A stretch of 62,860 bases of DNA, filler included, from Asterionella formosa (taxonomy: Eukaryota): the NCBI GenBank assembly GCA_002256025.1. It is 13 parts of 13 records of this genome, joined end to end, with 100 filler letters (N's around TTAATTAATTAA, not from the genome) between each part and the next. Parts side by side here need not be neighbours in the genome. Positions count along the whole stretch, not along the records: positions 1 to 23,096 come from NKIB01002534.1; 12 more parts are not named here. One strand, given 5' to 3'. Position numbers and translations under genes: made by a program. Shown one piece after another: positions 16,457 through 60,609 of this stretch. The first letter of the stretch is position 1. Each line of letters begins with the position of its first letter. Under the pieces are notes generated by a model that saw nothing but the letters and a program-made list of their open reading frames with translations, searched no databases and had not been told where the DNA came from.

Positions 16457-17703
16457 TTGAATGATAACTAGTATCGCAACCCTAAACAAAATGATAATAC
16501 GAATAATAAACACCAAGACCAATCAACTCATCACTATCAAAAAATGCACAATGTATGTTGTTCACCGTGTGTACCCTGGTACCAGGTACCAGGCTACAGT
16601 GGCGCCGTATATAAAACATTTACTTTTGAATATTTCATATGTCGAGTCTTTTTGATTACCGGTACTCTATCCTGCAATTGTCCTTCATATAAAACATATT
16701 TTGTAAACTTCCTTCAATATGTTCAATAGCCCCTACATTTTATTGCCGAAATCGAATGCCCTTTATTTAAGGGAATTTGACTACTNNNNNNNNNNNNNNN
16801 NNNNNNNNNNNNNNNNNNNNNNNNNNNNNNNNNNNNNNNNNNNNNNNNNNNNNNNNNNNNNNNNNNNNNNNNNNNNNNNNNNNNNNNNNNNNNNNNNNNN
16901 NNNNNNNNNNNNNNNNNNNNNNNNNNNNNNNNNNNNNNNNNNNNNNNNNNNNNNNNNNNNNNNNNNNNNNNNNNNNNNNNNNNNNNNNNNNNNNNNNNNN
17001 NNNNNNNNNNNNNNNNNNNNNNNNNNNNNNNNNNNNNNNNNNNNNNNNNNNNNNNNNNNNNNNNNNNNNNNNNNNNNNNNNNNNNNNNNNNNNNNNNNNN
17101 NNNNNNNNNNNNNNNNNNNNNNNNNNNNNNNNNNNNNNNNNNNNNNNNNNNNNNNNNNNNNNNNNNNNNNNNNNNNNNNNNNNNNNNNNNNNNNNNNNNN
17201 NNNNNNNNNNNNNNNNNNNNNNNNNNNNNNNNNNNNNNNNNNNNNNNNNNNNNNNNNNNNNNNNNNNNNNNNNNNNNNNNNNNNNNNNNNNNNNNNNNNN
17301 NNNNNNNNNNNNNNNNNNNNNNNNNNNNNNNNNNNNNNNNNNNNNNNNNNNNNNNNNNNNNNNNNNNNNNNNNNNNNNNNNNNNNNNNNNNNNNNNNNNN
17401 NNNNTTGTACGTGCAAAAACGTCCTCGTAGACTTAGAGTCTTGCGTAGGTATATTTTGCTGAATAATTCTCTGTCCGAAAAGACTCCAGGGTAAGTTCCC
17501 GCGTCATTACACATATTCTGATTGGTCGAATTGAATTTACTCACCTCCTGCTCCAGATCGGCTGGAGTACCCCGGTCTTGTAAAATTATGCCAGCCATAC
17601 TTGAACCACGTGTATTTGATGCTCTGTGTACTGGTACCTGGTAGGTAAAATAAGTTTCATCATCCATCGTCATTAACCAAGATTATGTACTACCGGTATA
17701 AGG

Positions 17704-18315
17704 TGTCAGAATGTGTCTGTTAGGCTGTTGATGTCGACAGGTGTCCAAAGACTAGGCAGTCTGAGGAATGTCTAAACGGAAATAGACAGGATTGACATAC
17801 GGTAGCAGAATAATCTGCAGACGAGCGGCGCAAGAAAGATCTTGACCGGTCATTCCAGGGCAGTACTGGAGCGCGCTAGAGTAGGCGCCATATATTTTAA
17901 CATGGTAGCGGGCTCGTTAGTACAAGTGGGACAAGGATATACGTGAAAACCAGAGGTCCACAGTTCGAGTCCTCAGCAAGAACAGAAAGAAAAAAGAGAA
18001 GAGAAAAAGAAGAAAAGAGACGAAGAAAAAGAGAGGGCACTATGAAATATTCCTGTAGGAAAGGATGTTTCGAGCATACACATTAAGATGATGTGGTATT
18101 TCGAACATCAACAGGGGAGGGTGTCAGAGTATGTCTGTTAGGCTGTTGATGTCAACAGGTGTCCAAAGACTAGGTATTCTGAGGAATGTCTAAACGGAAA
18201 TAGACAGGATTTATATAGCAGAATAATCTGTAGACGAGCGGCGCAAGAAAGATCTTGACTGGTCATTCCAGGGCAGTACTGGAGCGCGCTAGAGTAGGCG
18301 CCATATATTTTAACA
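17704..18315 (+). mobile_element. TRIM (miniature LTR retrotransposon): LTRs 17704-17902 and 18122-18315
   Basis: Two TGTCA...TAACA direct repeats (199 and 194 bp); PBS TGGTAGCGGGC at 17903; PPT AGGGGAGGG 18113-18121; 219-bp non-coding interior; flanks ATAAGG/ATCAGG (imperfect TSD). Confidence 0.92.
17911..17982 (+). promoter_or_regulatory. tRNA-like Pol III A/B-box module inside the TRIM
   Basis: A-box-like TAGTACAAGTGG 17918-17929; GAGGTC; B box GTTCGAGTCC 17963-17972; no clean cloverleaf. Confidence 0.55.
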
Positions 18316-20586
18316 ATCAGGTACCCTGGTACACCGTTACTCCGGTATTGGTCTATATCCCGGTATGTGCCTTTGAGTGTAGAGTAATATGCCTGTTGGG
18401 GGTAGAGTAATATTAAATCTACAAACAGCAACTAAGATTTAATATAAACGGATAAAAAATATCATGAGCATAAATTTAGGCATACTCCTGATGTATATAA
18501 GTGTTAACAAAATTATGTCTACATTCAGCAACAAAGATATGTGATAAATGTTCAAATATCATTTTTGTTTGTTCAAAATGGAACTCTATCTATCTGGTGC
18601 CGACTCCTATTTAATTCAAGTATTCAAATGGATACTCAAATCATGGGAACTCATAGCAGTAAACTCCCTGTTCCATGCCGTTTTTACAACCCTTGCAACG
18701 TTTTCTCCAAACTAGGGTTAAGCCGAGGGCCGCAACCTTTTCTGATGAAGGCACTTGTCATGTTACTCCTCTACTTCCTGACAATGTAACAAATCAGTAT
18801 CAACTGGTCTAACCACCAGCTTGTCCAATGAGGTGAAGTATGTTGCCAGTTGATTGTTGTTTTCACAAGGCATAATAGACACACACTACCATTATTCTTT
18901 TCCTGTTTCCCAACGCTAGCAAGCTACTTTTATCGAAACTCGCACGAAGATTGCAAAGTCTCCAGGTCGCAAACAATATGGGCAACATATCTCGCCAGCA
19001 TCAACAACATATAACTCCATTGCTCCGCCCCTATCAAGTTACTCAAACCTGTTCTCCTCAATTTTCCAAGCCACAAACGCCCACATCAGCCAGTAATTTT
19101 TCGAAGTATGCTGCTCCTCCTCCTGCCGGATATTACCAGAAGTCTGCACCACCAGGACCCCACCTCCACTATCAACAAGCTGTTGCTCCTCCAACTCCAC
19201 CACTAGTAGTACAAGTCAAAATCAAGCCAGAAACCCCTCCTCCAAATCGATTCATGCATCGGTTTCTGCTCCTTCAGGCCTGATCTGAAATTTTCTGGAA
19301 TTTCGTTTGCGATGACAAAAAAGTGTGAGTTGACAATTGTTAATGAAAATATGTTGACAGTTTTTCACACTATTTTTCCGCTGAACCATTTCTTTTTTCA
19401 CTTTTTATTCTACTCTCTGCTTGTCGTCATTGTCACGCCTTACCTTTCGATTTCCGTTTCTTACTTTGGTTGCTTAAAACATCGTGTCGAATTTTCGATT
19501 CTTGCTTGTTACAATCATGCATTCTTGTGTAATATTTTTCATGAATATACTAGTACCAATATATTCGGTCATCCATACTTTTTTGATGTGTCTGAACACT
19601 TTCCCTTGAAAATTCGCTCTACTCCTGACGTTGCTGGATGGTCCCTGCTGCTCAAACCTAAAATTGACTGCCAAAAAATCCGCTTTGCACCATATTACCC
19701 CTAAATAAAAATTATTTAGAGATGCCAAAAATTACTTAGATACCCACAGTTCTCATCGAAAAGCAAAACGACAACTAGTAGGGTGGGGATTGCCGATATG
19801 CACATGGGCGTGAAGCGCCCAGTACGAATCAATTTAAATACCAGTACCGGTACCAAAGGTGTGTTAATGTAGCTTCAATAGATGTAGCTACGGACCAGTA
19901 TTTTTGTAGGTGAGACGAAAGGCAAAGCAAATGAGGACATATGTGCCATGCAGACAAGCACCCCCCTCCAAAGTAGACGATAACAATAAGCTGTTTGTCA
20001 CATCTAATTCCTGCAAGGAAGCGGTTGTGATGGGTGAAGGATTAGCTACTAGCCAAGTGGCACGAAGGGGTTTATATATGTGGACAAGGCTCGGACATAT
20101 TTATCTCATTGTTTTGCAGATTCTTACAGAATTGGGCCATGGGAAGGCCTCCTAGCTGCCCAGGCCAATTTTTTCACAATAATTAAATCTAGGACCTACA
20201 TCCTCAATCACTACCTCTATTAGACGATCATATTTAGTCATAGAGCATGTCCTAGAACGTCAGGGATGACCATTCAAAACCCTTTCATTGTTGTGACCAA
20301 GGAACATCCTATCACACAATTCAGTGGCACTCACCACTATCATTCCTTGACACACTGAGCCAGTCGATCCAAAAAGAACTGTGTCTCCACTTTCATAAGC
20401 TACAAAGGGGATAAAAAGAGCCAAGGCCTCCTCCCCAGCTTGATGCAGCATAGTCTCATCCTCCTTCCATGTTTATCATTCAATGTAGTAAGAGTAGTAC
20501 TGCAAGTAACCATGCTATGCCTGTCTGACCACAGTCATGCTGTTAATGATGACTGAGGCAGGACCAGGGATTCTTGATTCATGAAA

Positions 20587-24329: not shown

Positions 24330-24639
24330 TGTCCGTTACCTTACCTCCAACCCTTTATCTATTGATTAGCAAATCTCTCATTAGAGCATCTCCACCGCAT
24401 CGACCAAATACCAAAGCCAAACGCAGTTGAAAATATCAAAACACGTCACTTGGTTGAGAATTTTTTTTATCAATAGTCGTAACTTTCATATTTTTTTCCA
24501 CCGCATCGACCAAATCCTAAAATAGTCAAATCTCGCGCCCAAAATTTTAGCAAATAGAAATAGAGTTATATTGTCTTTATATGTGTATCGTTGATAAAGC
24601 AGTACGTAGTACATAGCTATATAAACACAAAATAAAACA

Positions 24640-26116
24640 ATGAGCAATGATACGGACTCATCTGATGATGATCGCCTCTACCATTTCCGCAAGATGTATC
24701 GTCAACAAAGAAGTAAGAATGATGCAAAGAAAATACAAAATAAGGGAGGAGGAGGTTCCAAGGTTGGCAAGGCTACTAACGTGAATCGCTTTTGCGCAGA
24801 GTACGATAAGCTGTCGAAGGACGACTATTTCGGCGAGAATCCAATTTACTCTCCTGCACATTTCAGGAGGCGCTTCCGGATGCGTCGCTCCTTATTTGAA
24901 AAGATTCTTGAAGATTTGGTTGAGGCGAATCCATACTTTGAACAGAAGAAAGATGCTTTGGGTCTGGTCGGTTTTTCACCGCATCAAAAGTTAACCTCAG
25001 CACTTCGAATGTTGGCTTACGGAACTTCGGCAGATCAGCTGGATGACCTCACAAAAATGGCTGAATCGACTACACTCCACAACCTAANNNNNNNNNNNNN
25101 NNNNNNNNNNNNNNNNNNNNNNNNNNNNNNNNNNNNNNNNNNNNNNNNNNNNNNNNNNNNNNNNNNNNNNNNNNNNNNNNNNNNNNNNNNNNNNNNNNNN
25201 NNNNNNNNNNNNNNNNNNNNNNNNNNNNNNNNNNNNNNNNNNNNNNNNNNNNNNNNNNNNNNNNNNNNNNNNNCAAAAGATTTTTGTAACTCAATAATCA
25301 GCAGGTATGGAACAGAATATTTGCGAGCTCCTAATAAGGATGACATGGAAATGGTCTAACGTCTACATGAAGCAAAGGGTTGCTTGGCCGGGACTTCTTG
25401 GTTCATTGGATGTGATGCAGTGGGAATGGAAGAATTTTCCCAAGGCACACAGAGGAGCGTTTCAAGGAAAAGATGGAGTGGCTACTGTTGCTTTGGAAGC
25501 TGCAGTTGATTGTAGACTTTGGTTCTGGCATGCATGGTTTGGAATGCCAGGTGCTAACAATGATCTCAATATTTTGGATCGCTCTCCGTTTTTCCGGGAT
25601 TTGACAGCTGGAAGGACTCCTGCTGTCAACTTCACAATCAACAACAAAGAACACAATCTAGGTTACTATTTGGTTGATGGCATCTATCCAGATTGGCACA
25701 TTTTTGTCAAAACAATTTCGCAATCACAAGGTGCAAAGCGTGCACATTTTTCAATGGTTCAAGAGGCCCAACGCAAGGACATAGAGCGAGCATTTGGTGT
25801 GCTACAAGCAAGGTGGAGGATCCTGGCGCTTCCGTGCAAACTTTGGTCAGTTGGTGCAATGAATCATGTCATCATTGCATGTATCATACTACACAACATG
25901 ATTATAGAAGATGAGTGGGATACAAAAGACACAAACAAATATTTATTTGATAATATTCAGAATGGCTTTTTGGTTGACAATGTGAATCATGACAACAATG
26001 TGCATACTTTTCTAGATTTCAAAGCAATTCGAATGAACTACATGAATGAAGGTGAGCACTATCAATTGCGAAATGATTTGATTGAGCACTTGTGGACTCG
26101 AAATGAGGACAAATAA
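24640..26116 (+). pseudogene. Harbinger transposase (DDE), interrupted
   Basis: FRRRFRMRRSLF, ALRMLAYG, GSLDVMQWEWKN, NNDLNILDRSP, YYLVDGIYP, RKDIERAFGVLQARW, ACIILHNMI; TAA at 25357 and a frameshift near 25380; N gap. Confidence 0.93.
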
Positions 26117-30306: not shown

Positions 30307-33300
30307 TTACGTTCTCTTTTCGCTGTCATCGGTTGTAAGTCTCTTGGATTTCTGGGAATCGTCGCCTTCTCCATTTTTAGGTAGTTTCATAGAGAACTTG
30401 AGTTTCTCAGGCTTGCCAGCTGGTACAGTCAATCGAATTGTCTTGAGTTGATCTCCTACTTGTATGGTTGTTTGAAACTTTTCACCTACTTCAAGACCTT
30501 GGGGGACTTCCACAACATATTGCCTTGCCACCTCGTTGGCACGGGCATCAGTATGCGTGCCAGTAGGGTCGTCACTTCTAACGATGGATTTTGAAGTCAT
30601 TTTCTTTTTGTTTTTGGAATAAATGGTCGAAGCCAGCATTGGAAAGAGCTCGCGACACTTTTCAAGCGCTGCTTCCAGAACAGCAGACTTGGAGAAACTA
30701 CTCGACCAGTCATTAGATTGCAATGTGATGGCATTCGAATCATTGCGTGCTTGATAAATCTGACAGAGGGTTTCTATTTCGGGGATCGATGATCTGCCGA
30801 GCTTCCATTCTCGTGACGTCTCTAAATCAACCACACTGCAGTTCATGCGTAAAAAGCAGGCATAGCTACGCTTCAACAGATCAACGTTTTCCTTATTGGG
30901 TGTTGAGTTGAATTCCTTGAATAAGATCTCTACCAAAGCTCGATTGGTCTGTCTTTTCACCGCTAGCAAAAATGGATCAAGAAATGACCCCTTTAGCAGT
31001 AAAGAGTCGCGGTTGTGATGAGCTTCTGACAGACGTCCTCCAGTAAGGGCGGTTGCTTGGTAGAACGACGGGAGATCTCGCTTGCAGAATGCAATCCATT
31101 GAAGAAAAGTTTCCAAATCATTGGTTCGTCGACAGATTCGGAGACAATCAATATAGGCACTTATATACTTCCCTCTGATAGAATCATACTTTCGGATACT
31201 GTTATTCAATAGCTCAAATGGTGATGGTGAAGTTGATGCGCTGGTGACCCAGACCGCACAAAGCTGGGGCCTAGAAGCAGCAAATGCATGAATTAGAATA
31301 AAGCAACCATAGTCAGAGATGTACTGAGCCTTTTACTTACCGTTTTTTCTCAAAAAGTGTCACCATGATAACCTCAGCACTATTTGCACAAGGTGTCGCA
31401 CTGTTTAGCCCACGTATGCGATAGCTCTTCGTTGCTGGGACTGTTCCGAGGCTACCTAGGATGTAACCAGTGGCTGGATTGTCGAAGACAGGAGCCCACA
31501 TGAGCGCTTGTGCATACCTATATACCGAGCGGTGGAAGAACGGTTGTTCCAGACGGCATTGAGCCAGTGCCAAAACAACATCGGCAATCACCATCCAAAT
31601 GCGCCTGCGCACGTCCACTTTGGAATCCGCATCTGGGATGTCGTACCAATGACATTCCGTCAGACGCAGTGATTCGAGCACTACCAGATGACTTTCACCT
31701 TCAGTTCTCTGGACAGCCGCAAGAAGACATTTCAACCGCGACGCATGGAGTCGATACAAAACTTCGACAGCCCCATGAGAGCTTCCGCCAGCCTGAACAT
31801 CACTCCCAGTCTCGTTTTCTTGCCTTTGAGCTTCATCTAGTGATGCAGCATACGAATTCAGCGCCAATTCAAAATGATGCTCATACGCCCTCCTTATGAT
31901 GCCTGACTCAGCTGTGTCGCTGCTAGCAACACACTTCTCGAGGCTAAAAGTCTTGGCGATTTTCTCGTGGCACTAAATTAAACAGACAAGGTAATACAAG
32001 TTGTGATTAAACAGATATGATGGTAAGTCAAGTTTTGTTCCTTCATCCTTGTATCAGTACATACCTTGCCAATCATAAAGTGGAGATCCCATGTAACTTG
32101 GCTTTCGTCATCAGCATCACCTGTGGTGTTTATGGCTTCGAGCGCAGTTTGAAAGCAAAGCAAAGCAGTGTGTGCCAAATCCCGTTTTTTGTGATCAGTC
32201 AGAACCTGCAATGGGTAACCGTACACTTGGTTGCCCATTAGTTGTGAATAATGGAGAGTTCCTAGAGACTCAAGAATCTCAGACTTGAGCACTTCGTCAT
32301 CGGGGGTGCGTTCATTCTTTGTGTTTAGGACAAACAAGGCAACAGATAAACATTTTGTGGACATTCTGCGGAGACATTCAACAAACATACCACCCAAAGC
32401 CTGCTGCCATTGTACCAAATCCCCTTTATCGATCAAGCCCTTCAGTTCCAACAAAATCTGCGTTTCGAAAGGATCCGAAACATTTGCCTCAAGTTTCTGG
32501 AAGAAAGAATTGAGGGACTTAAATGACGACCAGGAATGGTCAACGAAAAGTGATAGATCATTGCCTATAAACGGAACCCAACCTTCTTTCTTGCGAAGAA
32601 AGTCGTACTCTTGGCGTTCCAAAAGGTCCGATAATACCATGGCTTTCTGGGGTTGCTCCCGACTTGATGGCACACTGAAGTTTCGACTCCTTAAGAATCC
32701 CTCTGAATACCCCATCCGATCAGCAATTGCATCTGCCTTGAGTTGAAGGCATTGTGCTGCTCCAGCCCATCCTTCTGCATTATCGGTATCACCAAAAGAG
32801 AGATCGTCAAGCATGCAGCGAAATTTTCTCGATAAAGCTCGCTCGTTTTGTGCTGTGACTGATCGTTCGTCTGTATTGGATTCCTCCCCCTTCTGACTTT
32901 TCGTAGAGTCGATTGATCCCGACGAAAGACTTGGAAGAGGCCCCATCGCCAGCTCCCTATAAATTCCCCTGCGAACAATCATGATTTCGTCGCCAACAAC
33001 AGTCTCCGCGCCTTCGCCATGACTGCGCAAATTGGGCACTAAATCATCGAACAGGGAAGTCCAATTCATTGAATTTGACACAACTACATTGACATCCTTC
33101 GATAGAAAAGAGTCCCGTTTCGAGGAAAAAATGAATTTGCGGACAGCTTTGATTTTGTTTGTTTCCAATGCTGGTGGCAACGAGGAAGCCACGCACTCAA
33201 GGGCCGGTTTAGGCGGGGATTTCCGACTTTGAAAATAAGTTCGACGTATGCAACGATATAGCTGGGCGGCTGCATCTGGACTTTCTGGCACAGATTTGCC

Positions 33301-36300
33301 AGATAATTGATCGTCAGTTGAATGACTCGACTCCTTCGACGCCGACGAAATCGTGAATCCATACAAGTGTCTGTATGCCTTATGAAGCATAGAGTCTAAG
33401 AGGGCACCTGTCGTTCTCGCTCCAAATGGATATGTTTCCGCCCAAAGGTTCTCTCTAGATTTTTCACGACTGCATTGAACAAGGAGAAGATCTGCAAGGG
33501 ACGATAGCACTCGGGTGATGATGAGCGGTAAAAGTATACCATGCTCTTGACCGTAATCAAACCTTGGCTCGAACGAAAGCATTGTCTTTTCATTAATTCT
33601 TGCACAAACCACAGATATGCACTGTACAGCCTGCGAAGCACATCGAAGTATGCCATCATACCTCTTCCCTTTCGTCTCAAAACGCCCTTCGTCCGACTCA
33701 TAATCGTTTGCACTTGCTTCAGAATCGAAAAACTCACCTAAACTGAGCTGGCTCGGAGTTAATTCTTCTGTCCCATTCAGGATGGAGAGACCCGCTCCGC
33801 AAAGGGAGATTAACATCGCTCCCAATGGAATGGAAAGCTCTTCTGCAACCAAGCGCTCCAGAGACGTCCCAGTAGCATTAGATACCTCACTGCCGACGAC
33901 AGAGGTCCACAACCATATCAGACTTTCAACAAATGTTCCAATCGAGGACAAATGATCTTTGTCACCTTCATCGCTAGGGAATGATTCAATCTGCACCATC
34001 GACAAAAGTAAAGCAGTGTGTTGAACACTATCACCGACCACTGTAACAGGTGACCGAGAAAGAAGCCTCGCGATTTCCTCTCCAACGCTGGCAACGAGAC
34101 CAGCTCTAGTCATACATGCTCGCTGGCGTACAGCACGCCCCATTCGGTTGCCTTTGCTTGGTTGAAGTAGCAAAGGCAGAGCCAAGCGCTGAGTGACAAT
34201 TATTCTTACCATTCCTACGAAGAAAGTTTTGTCAAGGAAAGAAACATTGCTTGGCTGAAATGGGCCTCGACAAGCATCAATTAAGGAATGAATTCGAAGA
34301 AATAACTTAGAATCCATGAAAAGGTGTTGCGAAAGAACTCTGTCGTTGCAGGAACTCGAATACCATTTAGCAACAAAACCCAACGCAAAATGTACTACAG
34401 ATCGGAATTCATATGATGAGGCCAGTTCTTTCCTCTGCTTGTCGTCAAGACGATTCTTACAGCAATCGATTATCTTGTGCATGACGAAATCAATCAAAAC
34501 GCCGATTAATAAAACTTTGTTTTCATCGCTATTTCGTAGGTGATTTGAAGAGTGCAAATCATCGAAGAAAATCTCGTCGTCTGAGAATGAGTCGTCATCA
34601 CTCAATTCTGCGTCTGTCGGTTCTTTCTTTCTCATATCATATTGTGACAATTTTGTCAGCAACGCTGCCTGCTGCTGCAAGGACGATAGAATCACTCGAG
34701 TAAGAACCATCAAGACAATGCTATAATCGCCCGATTCAGCTTGCAAACACGAGCAGAAAATGGTCAAAATGCTTGGGTGTTGGATGTCAATGAGGTCGGA
34801 AATCCCTGGTGTTCCCAGGGGCAGCAAGCTCCAAAGACCACCCCAATCATTCGTGCATAATATGGTTGGGTGGTCATCATCAATGAAAGCCACTAATTGG
34901 TGACTGCAAGTAGTTAGAAAGTCGTCGACGAGCTCCTCAAACCGTGAATTTACAGCAATAGTGGAAAGGTCATATCGTTCCAGAAGTGCCTTGCCGATAT
35001 TGGACAATCCTGTTAAATCTTCTTCGCGTAGGGGCTTGCCATTAATGGTTTTCCAGTGCGCAGTAATTGCATCAACTCTTTCTTGAAAATTTTGGCGAGC
35101 AAATGACACAACCGCCGCCGCTTGTATTTCTTCTTTAAATCGATGAAGTTCACTCTCAGAAAGGTTTCTCCAGATTGCATCGGAACGACGTGGTGACGAA
35201 AGGTGGGGCGTCGAGACTTTTGCAGCTGGAGATGATCCCGGTAGGCGAAGAGTTACAAGAATTTCGCTTATCTGCTTCAATGCCAACGATTCTGCGTCCT
35301 TGGATTCTCTGACACTGTGAGCCATTCTGCTCCTCCACATATAGTATCCTGCCGCAAACCAGTGACATCGCGCCTTCAGAGCAATGTTCACATTCGAAGT
35401 CCCATCCGCTATGATTGAAGTCACCCCTGAAAGCAACGTTGGTAATAAAAGCGATGTGGTGTTGGCGTCGCCATCGAAATCATGAACTTCAAAACCATCT
35501 TCTTCGCACCGGCGTAATCTGAGCTCTGCACTCAAAAGATTTACGGACAAGATGCGCACCTTCATTTCGGTTGACGATAAAGAAGAAATCGCAGGGCCAT
35601 ACCAGCAATGATCAAGTTTGTTGCGTCGTCCGCTCCGTTGAGCTAGGATGTCTATACATTCGAGAAACATATTGGAGAGAATAATTGAATCACTTGCGTC
35701 GCCAGAAAAGACGTCCCCAACATTCATGGCGACATGTGCCACAAACAGGTTCAACACATCGAATGGGCCCGAATTCGATGCACTACATTGATCAATAAAT
35801 GCAGTGAGGCACGAGTCGCCTAAACGTTCCTCGGCTTGTTGCCTACTATTGAAAGGCTTGCTTGACTGCGCTTGTTTGCCGATATCTTCCATAATCGGGC
35901 TAGAAGCAATATCAACTAATTCAGTCCAATTCACGGGATAACGAGCCATGTCACGATACAACGTAGAATCAGCGGTACAGTTAAGCACTGATGACAGTAC
36001 ACAGAATTCAACAGATCTACGTTTCGACTCCCTTTCTGCTCGTTTTCCAGATGTAATGAGCTGCGATTGCACTCGTTTTGACGATCTCGCTCGTGATCGT
36101 TCGCTTATCTCGGCCTGATCATCGTGAACCGATGCTGACTCAGGCGGCTCAATTAAAATTTCTTCCGTGAGCTCGTTTTCTGGTAATACGTTAGTGCCAA
36201 TATCTTGTTTGTTGATAATTCCGGAACTTCGCATATATTCTCGTCGCTCCAAGGATGTCCGCGCCGAAACAATGCATGCCGATAATCCTCTACACGTTGC

Positions 36301-37353
36301 TTCAAACCTCCAAATGCTACGATTGTCCAAAAAATTGCAGATTGTGGCCAGGGCCGTCGGAGGTAAGACCAACATTGGTGAAATCGTCATGACTATCAAC
36401 GGAGCACCGAGAATATTCTTGTTGACGTCTACCATCCCCTCTCGACACGCTCGCATAAGCAAGCGTCCCATAATCGACCATGAGTATCGTGGAAGATCTA
36501 TTGTTAGCTTACTGGTTTCTGCTTTCTGTGCAATTATATCGGGATACACGTCTGGCATGTCTTGTATTTCTTTGAGCGCTCGAGCAATAAGTCGATTCGG
36601 TGGAAGGTGAGCAGGCAACACCATACTGCCTCGTTCCAAGGCATGTCTTTCCAGACGCCGAAACTCCAGAGGCGATTTGTCTGAGGTAGTTTGTTGCAAT
36701 CGTCTCGAACAAGAACGGGCGGAACATGCTAGCTTCAGCCACAACACCGGGTCCGAGTCATCCAAGTCCGATGCATCGCTAAGAGCCATGAGAGCGAGCC
36801 GAGTGTCATCCGTATTTTCCCATCCAATCAATGATAGCGGTTTCACAATACACTTGTCCAGTACCTGCGCGTTTGTTGCAGTTTGGGTAGGTGTTTGACA
36901 AGCAATCAGAAGGTCAGCATAGTTTAACAATGCTAGGTATGCAATCTCCCTGACTGTTGTCTGGTGACTGGCCGACTTGACATCCGGAGATGTGGGTCGG
37001 TTTTCCAAGGCGAACCCAAATTTTTGCGAGTCCTTCTCGGCCATCTCTCTGACGGTCTGCAGCCAAGTAGGTCCGTAATGGGCAATCAATGGATCAATCA
37101 AAATAGCTTGCTCAAAAGTCCTTCTGGCTGCCATGGCCACTCGCTGCAACTCCTCTCGAGTAGCGGCATCCACGGTTGCTTTGAAAACCATAGAATGGGC
37201 CTTATGCAGTGCACCGATGCAGGACATGGCTAGTTTGTATGCCCTTGTCAATCTCGACATGGCGGCCTCCACTGTCTCGGTGGAGTTGATTTTGAGGGAC
37301 CCTTCCATCTCTTGCGTGAGGTCCCGCTTGACATTGGCTGCTTCCCATATCAT
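30307..37353 (-). CDS. CABIN1: CABIN1/Hir3-like HIRA-complex subunit (~2294 aa); exons 37353-32065, 31972-31341, 31270-30307
   Basis: LALLNYADLL, LDDSDPVLWLKLA, WDLHFMIGK|CHEK, VEVLYRLHASRLK motifs; 92- and 70-nt GT-AG introns join three ORFs in frame. Confidence 0.8.
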
Positions 37354-38329
37354 TGTTGTCGTTGTTTAATGGTGCTGCTGATGACTGCTGCCGAGCGAGA
37401 CGTTATTGTGTGTTTGTGAAGCTAAGAAATGTAATACTTGTAGAAGCAACGTGCACGGATGCTCCTAGTCTACATTGGTCAACCTGATATTTATATGTTG
37501 GGGCATCAAATCAATAATGTTGACTCCAGATAATAAAAAGTACTATGTAGTCTAATAGGGTTTTATTTATTGACTCATGGACTCGTCCAAGCTTTAATAA
37601 CAAACCCGGAAAACAGGAAAAGTTTAATGATATGATACAAGCATTATTGTTGAATGTGGGCCCCATGATTTTCTCAGGCTCAATTGTGAAAGCTTTCTAT
37701 CTGCCTTTATAGTATTTATAAAATATAATATAAATGTCTAGTAAAACTTAAAATTGGCAACTAGGTACATTTCAAAAAAAATTCGGGCTTTTTCGATTTC
37801 ACTTTTGCCCATCTCGAGCAAAATGTACTAGAGGATAATGCCTGAGCCCCTTTTATGGCCACAACTCAATCATAACAAGCGGATTGAAGGATCAGTGAAT
37901 TGTTGAGTGATTGGAAAGGAAACAGTCAGCTCCGGTTGTTTCATGCAAAATGATGTAAGTAGTCCAAATTGGTGAAGGTTTTGTCATTGTATTGTTTATG
38001 TTTCCAATTTCTCAACCGTGCTCTTGCTTCCGTCATTAAAGTGCTTCATTGTCAACATCGTTCAGAGAACTCCCATTCGAATTGACTGATGGTAAAGGAT
38101 TGGTGAATTGCGATGATGGCAATGCTTGGGCTCGAAAAACCAACATGATTCAAACATTTTCAGAAATTCTCTATTGCTGTAGTAGGACTCAATAATGAAT
38201 TTGTTTCTTGTTAAAATATAAAATAATTATTAACGTTGCCAAAATAATACACTATTATGGAAATTATTTTGCTATTAACCTTAAAATGATTATCCTCATA
38301 CTGTTATGGGTTTCTCAAATGAGTTATTG

Positions 38330-45931: not shown

Positions 45932-46354
45932 TTTCGATAGAAGTGATGGCTGGCTGTTGGGCAACAGAGTACAGTACAGTAGTTAACGGGAGAACGATGA
46001 TTGTTTAACGTCGAGCGAAGTGTGAGGAGGCAGACTTTCCACTTCACAGTTCGTATGTAATAATGATGCAATGTATTTCTTGCAGACTTTCTTATTTTTT
46101 TAGCTAATAAATAACAGAGGGAATGGAGTAAGTACATCAGCCATATCTAGTCAATAGCCCTTTGATCAATGATTCCTACATATGTACTGTACCATGGCTG
46201 TATCTGATACTAACTAACTACCGGCATGCATAAGTAGTGCTTTCTTATCAAAGCNNNNNNNNNNNNNNNNNNNNNNNNNNNNNNNNNNNNNNNNNNNNTT
46301 AATTAATTAANNNNNNNNNNNNNNNNNNNNNNNNNNNNNNNNNNNNNNNNNNNN

Positions 46355-46700
46355 CCTTGTTGAATTTTCCACCCAACCCATCTTCTATCCATTCTTTTGG
46401 TTTCAATTGTGCAATATCGGAACGATCGTATTTCAATTTTTGTTGTTGTTGCTGCTTTGATGTCGCAGATCCTGCGTTTGATGTTTTGCTCGTCTTGTTG
46501 TTCGCAGATTCCTTCTTTTTCATTTTCTTCGAATCAAACAATGTTTCAATTTCATCAATACCACTCTTGTCCGATGTGCCTATGCATCGAACTACTACCG
46601 GTGCGCCTTCTTTCTCATTCCGCTCATCGTCTGGTAGTGTTCGTTTCGGCATTGGGATTAATTCATGTACTATTGGGACAAGAACATGAATGATTTTCAA
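46355..46700 (-). CDS. Partial hypothetical ORF running into the linker
   Basis: Open K/E-rich frame ending ...KPKEWIEDGLGGKFNK; start and family unclear. Confidence 0.35.
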
Positions 46701-46894
46701 CGGGTCATGTATAACAAATGAGCAGAGTGAGGTCCAACATTATAATGGTTGGTAAGCAAACATGGCGGCCCCTGAGTGGGTGTACTGGTATTGTGCCCTG
46801 CTGCTCTCGGGGGGATTACTATTGGTAATTTGTAGTACTACCGGTAGGGAGAGTGCTCGGAATATTGTATACATAAAACGTTCACGTTAAAATA

Positions 46895-46995
46895 AGGAAA
46901 ATGATATGTAGCTACCAGTATTTCGTCCCCCTAACCCTTATCTTCCGATGGTACCTTGGAAGAGTCTAAGGTTAGGGATAGTTTGACGAAATATC
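46895..46995. mobile_element. MITE family B copy 2 (inverted; TA-site insertion in left TIR)
   Basis: AGGAAAATGATA[TGTAGCTACCAGTA]TTTCGTCCC; CCTTGGAAGAGTCTAA is the reverse complement of 20631-20646. Confidence 0.65.
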
Positions 46996-47235
46996 GAAAT
47001 CATAGTACCCGGTATATAGGGGTACCTGGTACCAGGTAGTCTACCGGGTTTCCCAATTCTAACCACGCCGACTACCAGGTACCGTACTGATGAGTGATGA
47101 CCTTCCTCGCTTGTGCACCCCCACCCCCACTTTGGTCGTGTACAAAACAAAATTTCATAATTGCTGATGATTCCTTCTTGCTTTGTTGCAAAAAGTCGTT
47201 CATTTTCGTACACCCCACCAAGTCTACTTATTATT

Positions 47236-47322
47236 TACCTGTACACCATATGGTATTTCCGAAACCCTATGTATATTTTATCTACCTGTACACCATATGG
47301 TATATCCGAAACCCTATGTATA
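47236..47322. repeat. ~48-bp tandem duplication
   Basis: tacctgtacaccatatggtat(t/a)tccgaaaccctatgtata occurs twice. Confidence 0.9.
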
Positions 47323-49378
47323 GAGATACCGGTAGTTCTGCCATGATAATACCGGTTCCGGAGTCGCACCTATTTACTCTCGTAACGGACAAAATTGAAA
47401 ATCACGATGAATGAAATATGATAAAAGCAACGGCAAAGCCAAGCATCTTCGTTCGGTACAGATGCTTACCAATATGTCTTCGTAGCAATCATTCTCACTG
47501 TCCACAGTAGGTACCTGTGTATGTGCGTTTATGTGGAACCAAAAATATATAAATGACCTCCTTGTGTTGTTTTATCGACTACATATGCCGGTATACTGGT
47601 ACACCTGTAGGTTACAAAATGTACTAGTACCAGTTGAACGATTCTTTGGAGGCGGAGTCCTGCAGGGACAAACCAGCAATCATTATATTCTTTTGTCGAG
47701 TAGAATTTTTATATGCCCTTGTTGTTCATGTGTATGTATGTACTCCGAGTAATGGGCATCTGGTACNNNNNNNNNNNNNNNNNNNNNNNNNNNNNNNNNN
47801 NNNNNNNNNNTTAATTAATTAANNNNNNNNNNNNNNNNNNNNNNNNNNNNNNNNNNNNNNNNNNNNCTGGTATACCGGTAGATGTGTCTATGATGGGCGT
47901 TAGACGTGTGACTCGTTCCCGACTGATACATTCAGGGCGGCTTTCATGCCCTACATATTCGAACACGATCGCATCGGTCGTTCTGCCTGTACATATATTC
48001 ATTGTCATGGTACCTAGGTACCAGTACCGGTAACTGGTATAGACAGGGACTTTCCCAAAACGGGATGAAACAGTAAAAACTATTAGGGTAGAAAATTCAA
48101 CTGCCCATGATTGGAATTTGCACCATAACTACAACCCAATTGCACCACGATACTTAGAGTACGGTACCGGTAGTCTATCGATGCACGTAGTACCAGGACC
48201 GCTTGTTGTTTAATTTTAGAACCATACGTATACTGGTACAAAGTGTCATTGTCGATTTGCCGGGACTGCATTGTCAGCATGCTTGGAATATAACACGGGG
48301 GGGTATCATGCTTGCTATTGTGGAATCCGTCAAATGAGAAAGAAGCCTAAAAAAAAAAGGTACTTGTTTAGTACCAGTTATCGGTATGTTCCTTGGTGCT
48401 GCTGGCTGTGGTGGTCAAACAAGGAGTCATTTTGTGTTCTCTTTGCTTCGATGCATCAGTCTGGGACAATATTGCAGTTATGATATTGGTATGAAAGCAA
48501 AAACACACTCTGTTCGTTTCGTACCGGTAAAAAGATATATAAATAAGAAGGCCATTAGTTAATCAAAGCACTTCACTCCTACAGCTTAATAAGTAATAAG
48601 AATACTGGTACGTAAACTGTAGACTGTCGTAAATTGATCAAAAACGGTAAACCTTAAGGGTCGTTCTTATCATTCCGATGGACTTTAGTTGTTGTACCTG
48701 GTACCAGGTTCCAGTACCTTCGGACATTATGTAGGTTTGGAATCTAATACAGACCAGATACAATCTCCTTTAGAGGATGAATACAAACCAACTTTCCAGC
48801 AGTACCCAGGTACACGTTCAAATAATACGGGGTAGTACGTCATGGCTAATAAGTAATACCGGTGGGTTTGAACCTATAGTTATTGGAATTAGAAAAAGGA
48901 ATCCGTGAAATTACCGGGACCTGGTAACGGTACTCTAAATGAATAAACTGCGTTCACTTGTGCTGCAGTAGTCCAAAAAAATTGCTGCAGAATGCATGTG
49001 GAACCATGTTTGCACCAGAAATCTAGGGGAAATCCCTGTTATAGTTGACTGAAGCGAGGATGGCAACGTTGGAACAAGGCAGTCAATCCAAGGAAAGTAT
49101 AGAAAGTTTAAAAGAAATCCGGAAGATCATCACTACTACTAGATTTCGATTGTCCTCCCCGCTTTCGTTTCGCTTTTTGTTCAGATCGTTTCTTGGCTTG
49201 AGTCTGTTTGGCTACATCCGCAGTTCGTCGCCTATGTTTTTGTTTGTCCTTGGCTCTAAACTCATCAGTCATTCCCGANNNNNNNNNNNNNNNNNNNNNN
49301 NNNNNNNNNNNNNNNNNNNNNNTTAATTAATTAANNNNNNNNNNNNNNNNNNNNNNNNNNNNNNNNNNNNNNNNNNNN

Positions 49379-50784
49379 AATACCCTGAGTTCGTTTGCAC
49401 TTGCAATAAGCATGAGGATTCTGGCACTGATTCCTTTCATGTTGGTCGTGTATGTATCGTGTCCTGAGGCATCGATCATGTGACCTCCTAGAATCAGCCG
49501 GGCCTTTCTCCGTAAATCCTGCTTGACGTCAAATATCATCATCAGTCGAGCATACTGAAATCCATCCCGTTTGAAGGATTTAGATTCGTCCGGTCCAAGA
49601 ATGTTGAAGATTTGCATCTCCATGAGAGCACCAATTTCCTTCTTTCTTGCCTGTTGCCACAGGTCATCACCGTTCAGCTTGGTGTCCAGAGCAATAGCTT
49701 CTCCTACCGTCCTGGGGATTTTCACCCCATATTTGACTTCACATCCACTTGAGGGATGCGGTCTCCTTTTGTTCCTGCCCGGCTTCGAGTTGGTTTTCAC
49801 CCGCCGCCGACTGGAAAAGGCTGAGTTGCTTCGGGTCAGGGTCACCACTGTGGCGCTAGCATCATGTGCATGTCGCCTCCGGATTGAAGTATTTGGTTCT
49901 ATTAGCCTGGTCCTATACAATGAAGTATCTAGGGTCCCTAGCGTTCTCTGAGACCATTCCCTGAGGGTACGGGACATGATCTTTTTCGACCTGAGATACG
50001 TTGCCAGCAAATATGGCGCATCTAGTTTCAGGTCATCAAGATCGCATTGGATCACTTCTCCCGACCGGTACTTTACTCGGAATATAATGGTTTTCACTCC
50101 ATCCCTAGTAGTGGTTTTATGACTAAGAATAGTTTTAATAGTTGAATAGTCTACCCCCTCGGTAGGAGGGGCATATAGTTCTAGGACACGGTTTGCCTCC
50201 GCTTCTGTCATTTCAAGCCATCGCTTGCGAACTTCTGCTTCCTCCGGGCCGAGTTTTCCCACATCAGTACTCTCCGGTATGGTTCCTTCCACGAAGTCCA
50301 CGTTTTTATGCGCCCCGGTAACTGGGGTATGTTTACTTCTGCCCTCACGCGGCCCCGGTGTTATGCGAGTTCCACCGTTGTTCTTGTCAGCTTCGTCAGG
50401 TTGTTTACTCTGTTCCCGTACCCTTTTCCTCCCCCCCCCCTCGAGGTTGGCACTAACAACTTCTGGACCATTCTTCGGCAGTTTGGGAGTTGCGAAGAAG
50501 TAGTCACTTGTGTATTTGACCAAGGTTCTTGGAAACTCCTCGTCTGGATGCCGAGGGAGCACCACGCTTCGGTGGATTTCTCTGGAGATGATGTCTTTTT
50601 CATCTATCCAGATGCGGTAGCACATGTTGTCTCCCTTCGTCCAGGCAATCCCCACAAAGCGTCCACGAAGGTACCTCTTCGCTGGATACTTTCTATTGCT
50701 CATGAGGTACCAGACTGGCTCCCAGAACTTAAATCTGAAAACTGAGATGTCTGGCGTATCCCCATCAAGCGCCTCCCACGGCGT
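49379..50784 (-). mobile_element. Ty1/copia (CoDi-like) pol fragment: integrase C-term, chromo-like segment, start of RT
   Basis: GRFVGIAWTKGD; KYGVKIPRTVGEAIALD...WQQARKKE; MIFDVKQDLRRKARLILGGH; open frame. Confidence 0.92.
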
Positions 50785-51739
50785 NNNNNNNNNNNNNNNN
50801 NNNNNNNNNNNNNNNNNNNNNNNNNNNNTTAATTAATTAANNNNNNNNNNNNNNNNNNNNNNNNNNNNNNNNNNNNNNNNNNNNCAGAGCACGACGCATT
50901 TCATTATTCCCAAGGTTCAACCCTGCCCTGCCAAAAACAGATTGATTGTCTGTAGAAAAAGAACAAGGTTCGCAGAGTATGTTCATGACTGACCACTTTT
51001 CCAATTCCAAACGGCACAAGTAAGAGGAAGAACGAAATGGAGGTAAAGGAACTACAACAGCAATCAAACATAGTTCCGAACACGAGACGAAGAAAACGAG
51101 CGACAGTGCAGAGCAACAACAAAAAGAACAACAGCAATGTGACAAAAGACCTGTTTCCATTTCCCAAAATATTAACTGCTTACCATTATTTCTCGAACTT
51201 TCAGATGCATCCTTTCTGTGATGACAAGCAAGGAGAAACAAAAAATGCCTGCCTGTTTCTTCCAGAGGAACCAGCCCACAACAGAGTCCTTCTTGTTATC
51301 TGGAAGCGAAGAACAAAATTCACAGAGTCAGATGATGGCTGGTTTTTAACAAACAAGACCTTTTTACATTCCATATCAAACAATGCATGTTCAAGTTCAA
51401 ACGCAGGGCGAGGAACACCAAGAAAGAGAAGGGTATACAGCCACAGTAACCACAACGAAAGAACAATAGAATAAGAACAAGAAAAATGACAGCAGAAACA
51501 GCAGGGACAGCGATAACGACAACGAGAACACAACCATGATAGCAGAAAAGACGACAAAAACGACAACAATAACTAACAATAATTTCATTTTACCATGAAT
51601 GTGATATTTTGTTCCTTTCATTCCAGCAGCTGCTTTTCGTTAAGAAAACTGGCACGGACGGTCCTCCTCGCCAACATTCATTTTGTACTACATTTTTGTA
51701 CATTGTACTTCAGAAAAAGCTGGCGCAGTCTATGCTTAG

Positions 51740-52283
51740 TCAGTATTGATCAAATTCGTCATCAGGATGCGTAAAATTTTCGGTGCTTGCTGTGGACTGA
51801 TGACCAGTGCTGTAGCACCTAAATTCCAATTCATTTCTTTCTCAACCAATTTGATGCCGATTTCTATATAATATATTATTTGATGTACCCGAAATCAAAG
51901 GCTTCTTGTCGAATGTCGATATGCTCAGAACGAACGTATATTGTCCAAAGGAGGCATCAGGATGTGTAAATTTTAGGACCACTGCTTTAACAACCAAACT
52001 TCCAATTCATCTTTCTCTACCAATTCATTGTCAATTTCTATCTAGCATAGTATTCGATTTATACGAGATATCAATGCCGATATTTCGAAAGCTCAGAACG
52101 AACATACATTGATCAAATTGCTCATCAAGATGGTGTGTAAATTTTCGGTACTTGTGGCTTGATCATTAGTGCAGTAGCAACAAAAATTCCAAACAACCCT
52201 TCTCAACCAAATTAAGGCAGATTTCTATCTAGCATAGTATTCGATGTACACAAAATCAATGCAGTCGTGTCGAATGTTCATAT
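51740..52283. repeat. Diverged ~180-bp tandem repeat (3 units)
   Basis: attgatcaaatt...catcaggatg.gtaaatttt at ~51745, 51940, 52108. Confidence 0.7.
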
Positions 52284-52383
52284 NNNNNNNNNNNNNNNNN
52301 NNNNNNNNNNNNNNNNNNNNNNNNNNNTTAATTAATTAANNNNNNNNNNNNNNNNNNNNNNNNNNNNNNNNNNNNNNNNNNNN

Positions 52384-52451
52384 ACATAATTATTTGAAAT
52401 ACTTCACATAATTATTTGAAATACTTCACATAATTATTTGAAATACTTCAA
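52384..52451. repeat. 22-bp tandem repeat, 3 copies
   Basis: acataattatttgaaatacttc x3. Confidence 0.95.
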
Positions 52452-52776
52452 TTAATTCTGTAATTCAGTTCACATTGCCTTAAATTTTTGTTCACGTAAT
52501 TCTATAATATGGTTCACGTAATTTATTAATTTTTTTTACGTATTTTATAAGTACTATCAAATAATGTTGATTACTAATTCAACAACCGGTATTTCACATT
52601 ACATGGGAAACAAATCTCGATATGCAATCAAACAAAGAAGTTCTTTCAGAATGGCATCTTCAGTCTTGAGAAGGCAGGCATTATGAGAAGTCTGTAAGGA
52701 CAATGCAAGACAAACAGAAGCGATGCAGAATACAGTTGCTTCCCAATCATCTCATCATGATTGATAAGATGATACT

Positions 52777-53038
52777 GTGATATCATGATAAGGTTACATC
52801 GATGCATACATCACCAAAGTATGATACGTAATATTGAATAAAGTACATCACATAGCTATGATACATTGATCCTAAAATTATGATGATTTTATGAAATATA
52901 TATGATATGATATCATGATAAGGTTACATCGATGCATACATCACCGAAGTATGATACGTAATATTGAATAAAATACATCACATAGCTATGATACATTGAT
53001 CCTAAAATTATGATGATTTTATAAAATGTATATGATAT
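52777..53038. repeat. ~130-bp near-identical tandem duplication
   Basis: tgatatcatgataaggttacatcgatgcatacatcacc...atgatgattttat occurs twice. Confidence 0.95.
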
Positions 53039-53348
53039 AATATTGATCAAAATATGATCATGTAAAAATAGTACAATGACAATAAAATACGATAAAATAT
53101 GTACGCAAGTGTTATCGATACATCACAGAATATAAATCAAGCAATCATAAAGTTTGTTAATTAATGTATATATATATATGTTTGTTGTTTAATATATACA
53201 GTTAAAGTCAACACTTAATATGATAGTATTTTACAGTGGATAGGATCTAAGTATACGGATGCGTTGATATGTACATCACTATAATATGATTTGTGATATG
53301 GATTGATGCATATCACATACCGGTATCCTCAACAACCAGCCATCACGT

Positions 53349-53593
53349 TCATTGTCGTGTCGTCTTTCCTTGTTTTAGATATATATATGCTCAGATCCGT
53401 TCCATTGCAAATCTTCCTTCAATAGGTCAAACTCGTCATCCTTGAGCATTTGCCTTCCAGTGGCATCGTAGGACTGAAGCGCGTCCAGAAAGATACGCTC
53501 CTTTTCGGCTACTGTGAGACGAATGAGTTCCCCACTTTCCGGATCGATGACACAGTATTCCTCGTCAGGACTACTTTCGTTTTTGCTTGATTC
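53349..53593 (-). pseudogene. PGRL1: PGRL1 (PGR5-like 1) gene fragment in a foreign context
   Basis: Manual translation DEEYCVIDPESGELIRLTVAEKERIFLDALQSYDATGRQMLKDDEFDLLKEDLQWNGS, then unrelated residues and a stop; AG acceptor at 53594-53595; absent from the ORF track. Confidence 0.85.
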
Positions 53594-53895
53594 CTATGGG
53601 GAAAGATGAAAGTAAGAATTTTTATTTACTCATAAATAGTTACTAACAAAATGGTTATTTGTTTTTAATCAAGTACAGCCATTTGCAAATAACCGGACGC
53701 TGGTGTCGTTTCTTTTGCTCCATCGACCGAGTCGGACAGAAGTGTCATGTTTTTGACAAGTCTCTTCAATCCAACCACTCCTCATATTCGAAACCNNNNN
53801 NNNNNNNNNNNNNNNNNNNNNNNNNNNNNNNNNNNNNNNTTAATTAATTAANNNNNNNNNNNNNNNNNNNNNNNNNNNNNNNNNNNNNNNNNNNN

Positions 53896-55307
53896 GTGTG
53901 TATGTTGTTATTTTGTTGTTTCAGTTTGGCGACAGTTTGTCCATTTATTTGCTTTATAGCTGGCAACAAAAAGAAATGAATCCATGGAGAACCACTTCTT
54001 TTACTGTTATCCAAAGCTCCTCCATGGACTATATCTCCACGCATGAGGAAGAAGAATTTTATTTCTATGGACAAGCAAATGTATTGCATGTTTCTCATCT
54101 GCGCAATTCTCCCGTACATTTAAACAGTTCCCTACTAAAGAAAATGACATTATCATTCCCCAAGTCATAGGTGTTTCCCTTTTGCATTCTGTTGGTGTAT
54201 AACCTTGGTTCGGTTTCTGAGGTTTTGGGTGACTAGCCATTCTTTCCAGAATTGGTGAGCAACATAGTGGCATTGTGTGGTATCACTCTGTTACTATTGA
54301 CGAAGACATCATTGGAATATGGTAGTGAAAAGCACTTTATCATATGCCAAAATGAATTTAAATTTGGCAGATCCAGCTTCGAATATTTTAAGCAAGCTGT
54401 CAGTATAATGTTTGAAAGGAAACACTCGCATGGCTTTTCATTCCATGGTATTTGCAAGTGCTTTATATGTTGCAGTTGTTTTGAATGTTTGTTTTCACAA
54501 ACGAAAAGGAGCGTTATAGATTTTCTTGGAAGTACAAAATGATTTTGCCACGTGTAAAATTTTTTGTCATTTTCTTCCGTTCCAAAAAACTCATCTTGAA
54601 GGTAAGATAAATTGAGGAAAAACATGCATTCTTGTTCAATTCTGTCGATAACATAAAGGAAATGGTCTGTTCTCAGAACTTTTTTGATTAACCATAATGA
54701 ATCAATGATGAAACATAGGAAATAGTCTATTTCTGCTGCATTTGGTGCTATACTTTTGTTTTTCTGATGTTATATCCTATATGATACCAAAATTTCCTTG
54801 AATTTCCAAAGGATGTTTTGTTAAACAAGCCAGACTGTAGGACCAAATAGAATTTGTTGAGAACAAAATCAAGAACACTGTTATCTAGTCTCTCCTTGCC
54901 TTTGTCATCATGATCAAAGTATCTAACCAGTAAGAGTCGTTCCTTGCTCTTCCGTTGTCTCTTGAACAGACTTGAAATGCGCCGCAGAAACACGTTTTTT
55001 CTGATTGAGCAATCTCTGATCGGTATCCCCTTCACAACCAAGATCGTCCCATTCTTTGTAGCACTCGGAACCTTTGCCATTCCCGATAACAAGTGATATA
55101 TTGCACTATCAATAGTGTGCAAATTTCAAGAGAAATGTGAGTGTAACAGAAGAAAGCAGGAAAGGATAATTGTCTGTCAACTTTATGGTTAGACAGCGAT
55201 GTCATACCAACATACTCAGTAGCTAATAGACATGAGATTGGTAGCGCCAAGCAATAGTTTCAAAGTACCAACATAGTACATAGTAGGTAAAGTTTCACAA
55301 TAGACAC
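53896..55307 (-). pseudogene. Degenerate repeat-borne ORF(s), with PhyH/2OG-Fe(II)-oxygenase-like motifs near the 3' end
   Basis: 54775-55300 homologous to 6230-6770; PQKPNQGY...TPMTWGMIMSF...GNCLNV and FLMRGDIVHGG...WIHF across frameshifts. Confidence 0.5.
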
Positions 55308-55834
55308 NNNNNNNNNNNNNNNNNNNNNNNNNNNNNNNNNNNNNNNNNNNNTTAATTAATTAANNNNNNNNNNNNNNNNNNNNNNNNNNNNNNNNNNNNN
55401 NNNNNNNTTCAATTTTTTGAAAATCAGTGCCCTTCTGCTATGTCACACATTTTGACTCATATCGTTTTATCTTTCAAAACAGGGTTCAGCGTCTTTCGCA
55501 CAATGTGGTGTCATTTCCGGGTTTCGAGCAAAAACTGACAGTTGGTACTACTCATCAATTTTGGGTACCGGTTATTAATTGCTTTGAGCCACCACGTTAT
55601 GATATCATTTTCCAACTAATTAAGATTTATGCTAAAATCAATCCCCTCTTTCGCCCTTTGGCACGATATTAGTTAGTTCATTGAGCTACATGAGAATTAG
55701 ATCATTTTTGTTCTTGAACATTTATCAACTGAAATCTTTCCATTTTAAAAGTGACAAAACCAGTCAAAGTGGCTAAAAGCCATTGATGAAAGCTTTGACA
55801 TGGATGTAGTTATCTTTAGATGATAATGGGTTAT

Positions 55835-56202
55835 ATAGCTCACTCCCACTCCCCTTTTTCAAGGCGAGTATTCATTGTGCTTCCTTCTGACAAGACCTGT
55901 GCTTCCCTAGTTTTGTTAGTACAGTAGTAGGCAATTCCTCAACCACCCACCCTTCACAAAAGATGATCATCTTGGCTGCTGCATAAGGGGAAACTCCAAC
56001 CTCCTGGGAAGGCGACACAAGCTGCATGTAGTGGGGAACCCACTATTTCTTGTACACCAGCAGACCAGGCAAGAAGACTGTGCGGGATTTGAAGGATTGT
56101 GGGAGTCGAACCCAACAATTGCTTCTCAAAAAAATTAAGAGAATTGAACCTCACAACCTCAGACAAAAGGCAACATGCTCAACTAACTACCATAAGCCAT
56201 TC
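55835..56202 (-). mobile_element. tRNA-derived SINE, copy 2 (diverged)
   Basis: Colinear with 20722-21071, e.g. aacccactatttcttgtacac and aattgcttctcaaaaaaatt...gaattgaacctcacaacctcaga. Confidence 0.8.
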
Positions 56203-60278: not shown

Positions 60279-60356
60279 ACAGACACAACACACACAACAC
60301 ACACACACACACACACACACAGAGACACAGACAGACAAGACACACAGACACAGACA
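60279..60356. repeat. Imperfect (CA)n microsatellite
   Basis: acacacacacacacacacacac with cag interruptions. Confidence 0.9.
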
Positions 60357-60609
60357 TTTTCTTGGACAATAGCATGGCATACTGCAGGGTTCCATTGGTC
60401 CGTTGGTAGAATATTCTATGTACCAAAATGTGAAGAAAAATTCTACCCCCAGTATTACTGGGTAGAATTTTTGCCTTTCTCTATACCATATTTTCACCAC
60501 GGTCAAGCAAGGGAGGAAAACCGGACAGTATTGACCTGTCCAGAGTAGAACACTACCGGAGCCCTACAGAAAAATACTACTTTGGTAGAATTTCGTCAAA
60601 AATGTATCA

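Follow-up and report, generated by a model that had tools for sequence, protein, structure and literature searches.

Sequence inspection together with a repeat search placed a TRIM of 612 bp at 17704–18315 of the window, the whole stretch of 62,860 nucleotides (filler included) from the Asterionella formosa assembly that we analysed; all features of the element are given for the plus strand. The repeat search found its LTRs as two direct repeats with the ends TGTCA...AACA, one of 199 nt (17704–17902) and one of 194 nt (18122–18315), identical at 186 of 194 ungapped columns and enclosing an interior of 219 nt. A 9-nt PBS-like site, TGGTAGCGG (17903–17911), adjoins the 5' LTR with its TGGTAGC and no spacer between them, and the polypurine tract (PPT) AGGGGAGGG (18113–18121) precedes the 3' LTR. 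The copy is bounded by a target-site duplication (TSD) of 6 bp, the length typical of the family, with ATAAGG on the left (17698–17703) and ATCAGG on the right (18316–18321), identical at five of six positions. With two LTRs, a total length below 1 kb, no coding sequence (no ORF of at least 200 aa overlaps the element), a PPT before the 3' LTR, a TSD and multiple insertions, the element qualifies as a TRIM, and every part of the LTR-PBS-PPT-LTR structure of 612 bp put forward in the original prediction was located, the PBS as a PBS-like site. That prediction had included neither the TSD nor the loss of the family TATA box from the 5' LTR of this copy, which carries GACATACGG in place of the family TATATA; the 3' LTR has TATATA at 18212–18217 and, close to its terminus, a run of T4. 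The start of R in the 5' LTR would lie near 17828.

Directly 3' of the PBS-like site is a decayed full-length tRNA gene in sense orientation (17912–17984), here called the head, which most resembles the host elongator tRNA-Met(CAT), lacks CCA, and contains an A box, TAGTACAAGTGG (17918–17929), and a B box, GTTCGAGTC (17963–17971; the next base is C). The head is followed at once by an A-rich purine tract (17985–18037) that varies among copies; the A/G tract of about 55 nt predicted at 17983–18037 is indeed purine at 53 of 55 positions. The predicted interior hairpin (18064–18109) was likewise borne out by folding (z −4.4; as good in 0 of 200 shuffles), and in other copies its 3' arm could alternatively pair with LTR nt ~22–40 across the PPT. 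Folding and shuffles also suggest imperfect pairing between a segment of U5 (17863–17878) and the PBS and A-box region, hereafter the U5-leader stem. A hammerhead-like CTGAGGA...GAAA in the LTR gained no support from an Rfam scan, which returned no hammerhead match of the kind that retrozymes have in their LTRs, and no 5S match up to E 10 of the kind that defines the LTRs of Cassandra and Ajax. Elsewhere in the window there are two adjacent open frames at 24625–26116, the second matching Plant_tran/DDE_Tnp_4 (a PIF/Harbinger-type transposase), a 1795-aa open frame at 31978–37365 (minus strand) with no Pfam match, and, at 46255–61449, pieces of ~1.5 kb divided by paired N runs rather than one contig.

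The tRNA-derived head

Over their full length, the 73 nt of 17912–17984 can be aligned in sense orientation to the host elongator tRNA-Met(CAT); identity is 52/73 for the window copy, 53 for a typical copy, and 58/73 for the variant at locus L122, which retains a TCATAA loop. When 35 distinct interiors were compared with 66 tRNA genes of the assembly (cytosolic, plastid- and mitochondrial-type; an incomplete set), elongator Met was the sole best match for 22, tied for 6 and lost for 7. The L122 head scored 59 against Met, with 45 for the next isotype and a maximum of 38 in 200 shuffles; the window copy taken alone scored 38, its best matches being Thr and a plastid-type Ile rather than Met, and its maximum in 200 shuffles was 37. 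Because of the L122 score, the shuffle maxima and the predominance of Met as best match for most interiors, we regard a tRNA origin of the head as firm at the level of the family, as judged from alignment; its identity as elongator Met is likely but not certain.

The original prediction of an A-box-like motif and a B box at tRNA-like spacing agrees with the distance from the A-box start (17918) to the B-box start (17963), which is 45 nt and which we take to be the distance between T8 and G53 of a tRNA. The A+B pattern at this spacing arose in 3 of 20,000 shuffles of the interior, and occurs once on the plus strand of the window. A tRNA scan, suggested as a check, called nothing: ARAGORN found no tRNA in the window, and Rfam gave no tRNA match in 17200–18900 up to E 10. 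In folding, too, the head does not surpass its shuffles (z 0.19), the cloverleaf having been lost, and its position 73 has no CCA behind it, with the A-rich tract starting immediately. Simple SINEs and tRNA retro-pseudogenes are built in this way, with a tRNA head whose boxes are intact and whose stems are broken, and then an A-rich tail. Of the predicted tRNA/SINE-LTR hybrid, the tRNA-derived module stands, given the 73-nt colinearity and the shuffle result. The SINE half is more tentative: since none of 46 matches to an exact 17-nt T-arm motif in the assembly was a stand-alone SINE with this head (a free copy with its own TSD), the hybrid can only be proposed.

Two other origins were considered and rejected. 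An antisense tRNA head, whether from primer read-through or as Ty1-like extended boxes, gave antisense scores of 21–25, which is shuffle level, and two host tRNA-Met genes that were inspected have flanks unlike the element, as opposed to what capture of a tRNA gene with its own flanks would leave. Loci L097, L100, L103 and L109 carry, near position 1500, tRNA-headed repeats of a different family (GGGAATGGTTTAGTGG...), which contain a B box and have their body in common; it is probably a true SINE family, unrelated to the TRIM head.

Copies of the family in the genome

A search of the genome with the element identified near-complete copies at 83–100% identity (40 scored of 376 candidates), with LTR–LTR identity of 84–99% across copies. 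Both ends could be read in ten copies, one same-site duplicate having been dropped: five have perfect 6-bp TSDs, four (including the window copy) have TSDs with 5/6 identity, and one has none. The 46 T-arm motif matches comprise 41 behind an LTR end, three head-first TRIM pieces, and two that start at a contig edge. With dozens of copies, and with seven matches over the cut-off to the silicon-transporter family in the genome, the predicted diatom TRIM was upheld as a multi-copy element, the host being a probable diatom; plastid-type tRNA clusters are also present in the assembly. Because a public metagenome contig carries one copy at 93–96% identity, the TRIM structure is not peculiar to one assembly; a metagenome search for diverged relatives returned eight matches, seven of them prokaryote-type tRNA clusters and the eighth a copy of the same family. 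In a survey of 24 RNA runs, none contained more than 0.20 of the words sampled, which is uninformative on expression or habitat.

The three head-first copies have no 5' LTR; their first nucleotides are interior nt 5, 5 and 8–9, and they reach the end of one LTR or come close to it, two of them stopping at or just after its T run; no TSD was found at any of the three. Tandem arrays occur in two forms, with a full middle LTR (L221, L223) and, in a subfamily of five loci that represents one event (L017, L024, L026, L027 and L028), with a shortened middle LTR that lacks the TATA region. The copies with the most tRNA-Met-like anticodon loops, at L122 and L167, finish where the purine tract does, their 3' half being absent.

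Of the 35 distinct interiors (44 interiors less nine that were identical or same-site duplicates), 28 have both boxes in agreement with the pattern. The original prediction had proposed conservation of the boxes among copies as a check, and we found no excess: private changes number 14/735 in the boxes and 26/1814 in the rest of the head (p 0.38). Variants shared by subfamilies were seen in 0/21 box columns as against 7/22 anticodon-arm columns (p 0.009) or 8/52 columns of the whole non-box head (p 0.095), counts in which the variants are mutually non-independent and the B-box window is shifted by one base. As the variable loop and the 3' acceptor are equally free of shared variants, this signal for selection is weak, and there is no clear selection on the boxes among copies. 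A T4 run lies near the LTR end in 5/38 LTRs, with no conserved terminator; selection against T runs was also considered and is not significant, as T4 is absent from 65% of shuffles.

The PBS-like site

Initiator tRNAs usually have A1:U72, and TGGTAGC had been predicted to fit the 3' end of such a tRNA. The host cytosolic initiator tRNA-Met gene does not match: it reads TGCTGTT...AACAGCA-A (U1:A72) at both loci found (L077, L078), so that the complement of its 3' end would read TGGTTGCTG, not TGGTAGCGG, and we rejected initiator priming. A search for LTR elements with a PBS for this 3' end gave three matches against seven control matches, none of them in LTR context by eye. Among 64 tRNA genes (an incomplete set), the longest contiguous 3' match to the PBS-like site was 9 nt, to plastid-type fMet, and it ends exactly at the start of the tRNA relic; a plastid tRNA should not be within reach of a cytosolic reverse transcriptase. 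Cytosolic Thr(TGT) can form a bulged duplex of ~−19 kcal/mol with the site. Searches for other primers with patterns of a T arm and, after it, CCCGCT or YGCTA yielded only plastid-type tRNAs or non-tRNA matches (12 of the 20 matches of one search were scanned with ARAGORN and a thirteenth was viewed), and no autonomous element with the same PBS was seen at six loci from 16 matches or in two further matches. The longest exact PBS complement in the LTR is 6 nt, rather than the perfect complement at the RNA 5' end that marks a Tf1-like element, and the best self-duplex of the PBS region is the bulged, imperfect stem with U5. The PBS-like site may be a relic of an ancestor that used another initiator tRNA; the Met PBS of GalEa type begins with TGGTAGC (PMC5445492). 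A Copia element at L147 (minus strand) has, directly after its 5' LTR, a PBS whose complement is the initiator tRNA around its anticodon, as in the half-tRNA type of priming.

Probable transcription start and a candidate Copia helper

Most LTRs of the family contain TTTATATAG. The shortened middle LTR of the five-locus tandem subfamily breaks at LTR nt ~120, ~29 nt past the TATA start, and so does the 5'-truncated copy L226; these two rearrangements are independent, and the two events would fit a Pol II start near LTR nt 120.

The survey for possible helpers covered 20 Copia regions, drawn from 150 matches to RT. One family (reference copy L151), with matches to Copia gag, integrase and RT, has the ends TGTCAAG...TTTCAACA and the PPT GGGGAGGA, and its solo LTRs have a 6-bp TSD in 4/4 assessable cases when the boundary is set at TGT. 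At L150, L161 and L243 the LTR ends of L151-type Copia and TRIM abut directly, one junction being inverted (U5 to U5), and at L168 the TRIM interior is joined into the Copia LTR at nt 29; by a rough estimate, about 0.01 such end-to-end junctions are expected under uniform insertion. Judging from these shared features, the L151 family is probably the helper of the TRIM. Against this, L151 has after its LTR a 12-nt palindrome, CGCTTTAAAGCG (L151:3039–3050; also loci L172–L201), rather than a TGG site, so that its priming does not match, and the junctions may be short-read assembly joins or reflect a shared target preference. There is no LTR or interior similarity between the TRIM and L151. The palindrome occurs in a family with about 360–400 LTR candidates, has no LTR complement beyond shuffle level, and is reminiscent of the 'conserved hairpin site' that PMC5445492 describes for fungal GalEa elements. 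A second Copia, L146, has a 6-bp TSD and a related, palindromic site.

Origin and replication of the element

We consider it reasonably probable that this is an ordinary TRIM, replicated through a Pol II RNA and Copia proteins, in which the tRNA relic is a passenger. A founder TRIM would have captured a simple SINE or tRNA retro-pseudogene, in the form of a tRNA-Met-like gene followed by an A-rich tail, directly behind its PBS. Using the TATA box of the LTR, Pol II would transcribe the copying RNA from ~30 nt downstream, and the L151 Copia family would reverse-transcribe and integrate this RNA in trans, while the relic would ride along and may bind TFIIIC or yield a short side transcript. The geometry of the boxes, which lie 3' of the PBS, argues against a template RNA made by Pol III: an RNA that began at the relic would contain neither U5 nor most of the PBS, whose first bases would be missing, so it could not be a normal template, and it is for this reason that we would see the relic as a passenger. 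The absence of shared variants from the 21 box columns, compared with the anticodon arm, sits less easily with a passenger, as does the fact that the three head-first copies start near the expected Pol III start. Alternatively, the relic might be a working internal Pol III promoter under selection. Its RNA of ~410 nt (head, purine tract, hairpin, PPT and LTR) would move like a SINE or, by read-through of tandem LTR-interior-LTR-interior arrays, would become a permuted RNA that includes LTR and PBS and is open to reverse transcription. The boxes fit in most interiors though the cloverleaf is lost, the head-first copies lack a 5' LTR and two end at the T run, and the arrays have a middle LTR that is either full or without its TATA region, all as such a promoter might lead one to expect. 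We nevertheless think it unlikely. A piece made of PBS, interior and LTR is the expected intermediate of reverse transcription, and the head-first pieces equal it; they have no TSD and make up just 3/46 motif matches, private changes reveal no excess box conservation, T4 is not conserved, and tandem arrays occur in Cassandra without any scheme of this kind (PMC7215508). A more specific form, a second route in which Pol III would initiate immediately within the PBS and, in tandem arrays (some without the TATA box in the middle LTR), transcribe onward through the LTR and the next PBS to give a circularly permuted template, is rather improbable; a Copia reverse transcriptase could copy this RNA without the first strand transfer, and single copies would release SINE-like head-to-LTR RNAs that could give rise to the three head-first insertions.

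The relic might instead be kept for RNA structure, with the PBS and A-box region pairing with U5 and serving priming or packaging, a proposal that we hold to be doubtful. The duplex with LTR nt ~155–184 reaches −21.5 to −23.2 kcal/mol in five copies, with 8–15 of 500 shuffles as good; the local stem has z −2.2, the A box has changed from the TAGCTC of the tRNA to TAGTAC, which pairs with GTACT of U5, and no cytosolic tRNA is a good fit to the PBS. Yet two of the seven copies tested pair weakly (83 and 148 of 500 shuffles do as well), the copies are non-independent, and the duplex is bulged and lies ~64 nt past the TATA box, not at the inferred RNA start, in which it differs from Tf1 (PMC5445492). 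Very improbable and, on the sequence comparisons, already largely refuted is an origin of the interior by deletion from the leader of an autonomous element, with boxes that match by chance. The window copy alone would permit it, scoring one above its shuffle maximum with best matches to Thr and plastid-type Ile; what counts against it is the 73-nt colinearity with a host tRNA, the L122 score against Met, the rarity of the A+B pattern in shuffles, and an interior that matches none of the 20 Copia regions apart from short purine-tract matches. A search with the 3' interior likewise gave nine new loci among its top 40 matches, all in TRIM context, and the interior is thus not a deletion derivative of any autonomous element found, the alternative that the original prediction had named as its refutation.

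Comparison with known elements

The original prediction had compared the element with Cassandra; Helenus is closer. Helenus (TRIMp3) is defined as a TRIM with tRNA-derived sequence in its LTRs (PMC10886601, Kojima 2024). The two are alike in being TRIMs of less than 1 kb with a PBS (here a PBS-like site), a PPT, a TSD and a tRNA-derived part that has boxes A and B and is not a functional tRNA, and in tandem arrays and a proposed origin by SINE insertion, with Copia helpers for the fungal Helenus families (PMC10886601). They differ in that the tRNA part of Helenus is in the LTRs, where it is able to drive template RNA, whereas here it is present once, internally and 3' of the PBS; the TSD of Helenus is 4 or 5 bp and here 6 bp; and Helenus hosts are fungi, animals and one plant, as against a probable diatom. 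The window element, with boxes A and B outside the LTRs and a 6-bp TSD, is therefore not a member of Helenus. As Kojima (2024) screened LTR sequences, an internal form would lie outside that screen (PMC10886601). Our literature search, which covered few subscription journals, found no description of a TRIM with an internal tRNA part, and none of such an element in diatoms, although the supplement of Kojima (2024) could hold one.

With Cassandra and Ajax the element shares a TRIM structure with a Pol III promoter motif derived from a small RNA, and tandem arrays of LTR and interior; as described in PMC10886601 and PMC7215508, theirs is 5S-derived, lies in the LTR and has terminators, and Pol III transcription is reported for Cassandra. 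The likeness to a simple tRNA SINE or retro-pseudogene is confined to the head, boxes, broken stems and A-rich tail; the TRIM head was not found free-standing in the assembly, has no TSD of its own that we could see, and spreads inside an LTR element. The CoDi Copia elements of diatoms (Maumus 2009) are, like the TRIM, TG...CA-ended LTR elements, and the putative helper is a Copia; the TSD examples in the passages of that paper considered here (PMC2806351), which describe no PBS, are of 4 and 5 bp, in contrast to 6 bp for L151.

The element would extend the TRIMs that carry small-RNA sequences to an internal tRNA arrangement and to a probable diatom host, and together with L151 it makes up a TRIM-helper pair that has a 6-bp TSD and lends itself to testing. 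Should the promoter prove live, its place behind the PBS would call for replication by a non-standard route; if it is dead, the element would be a vehicle that spreads tRNA-like boxes through the genome.
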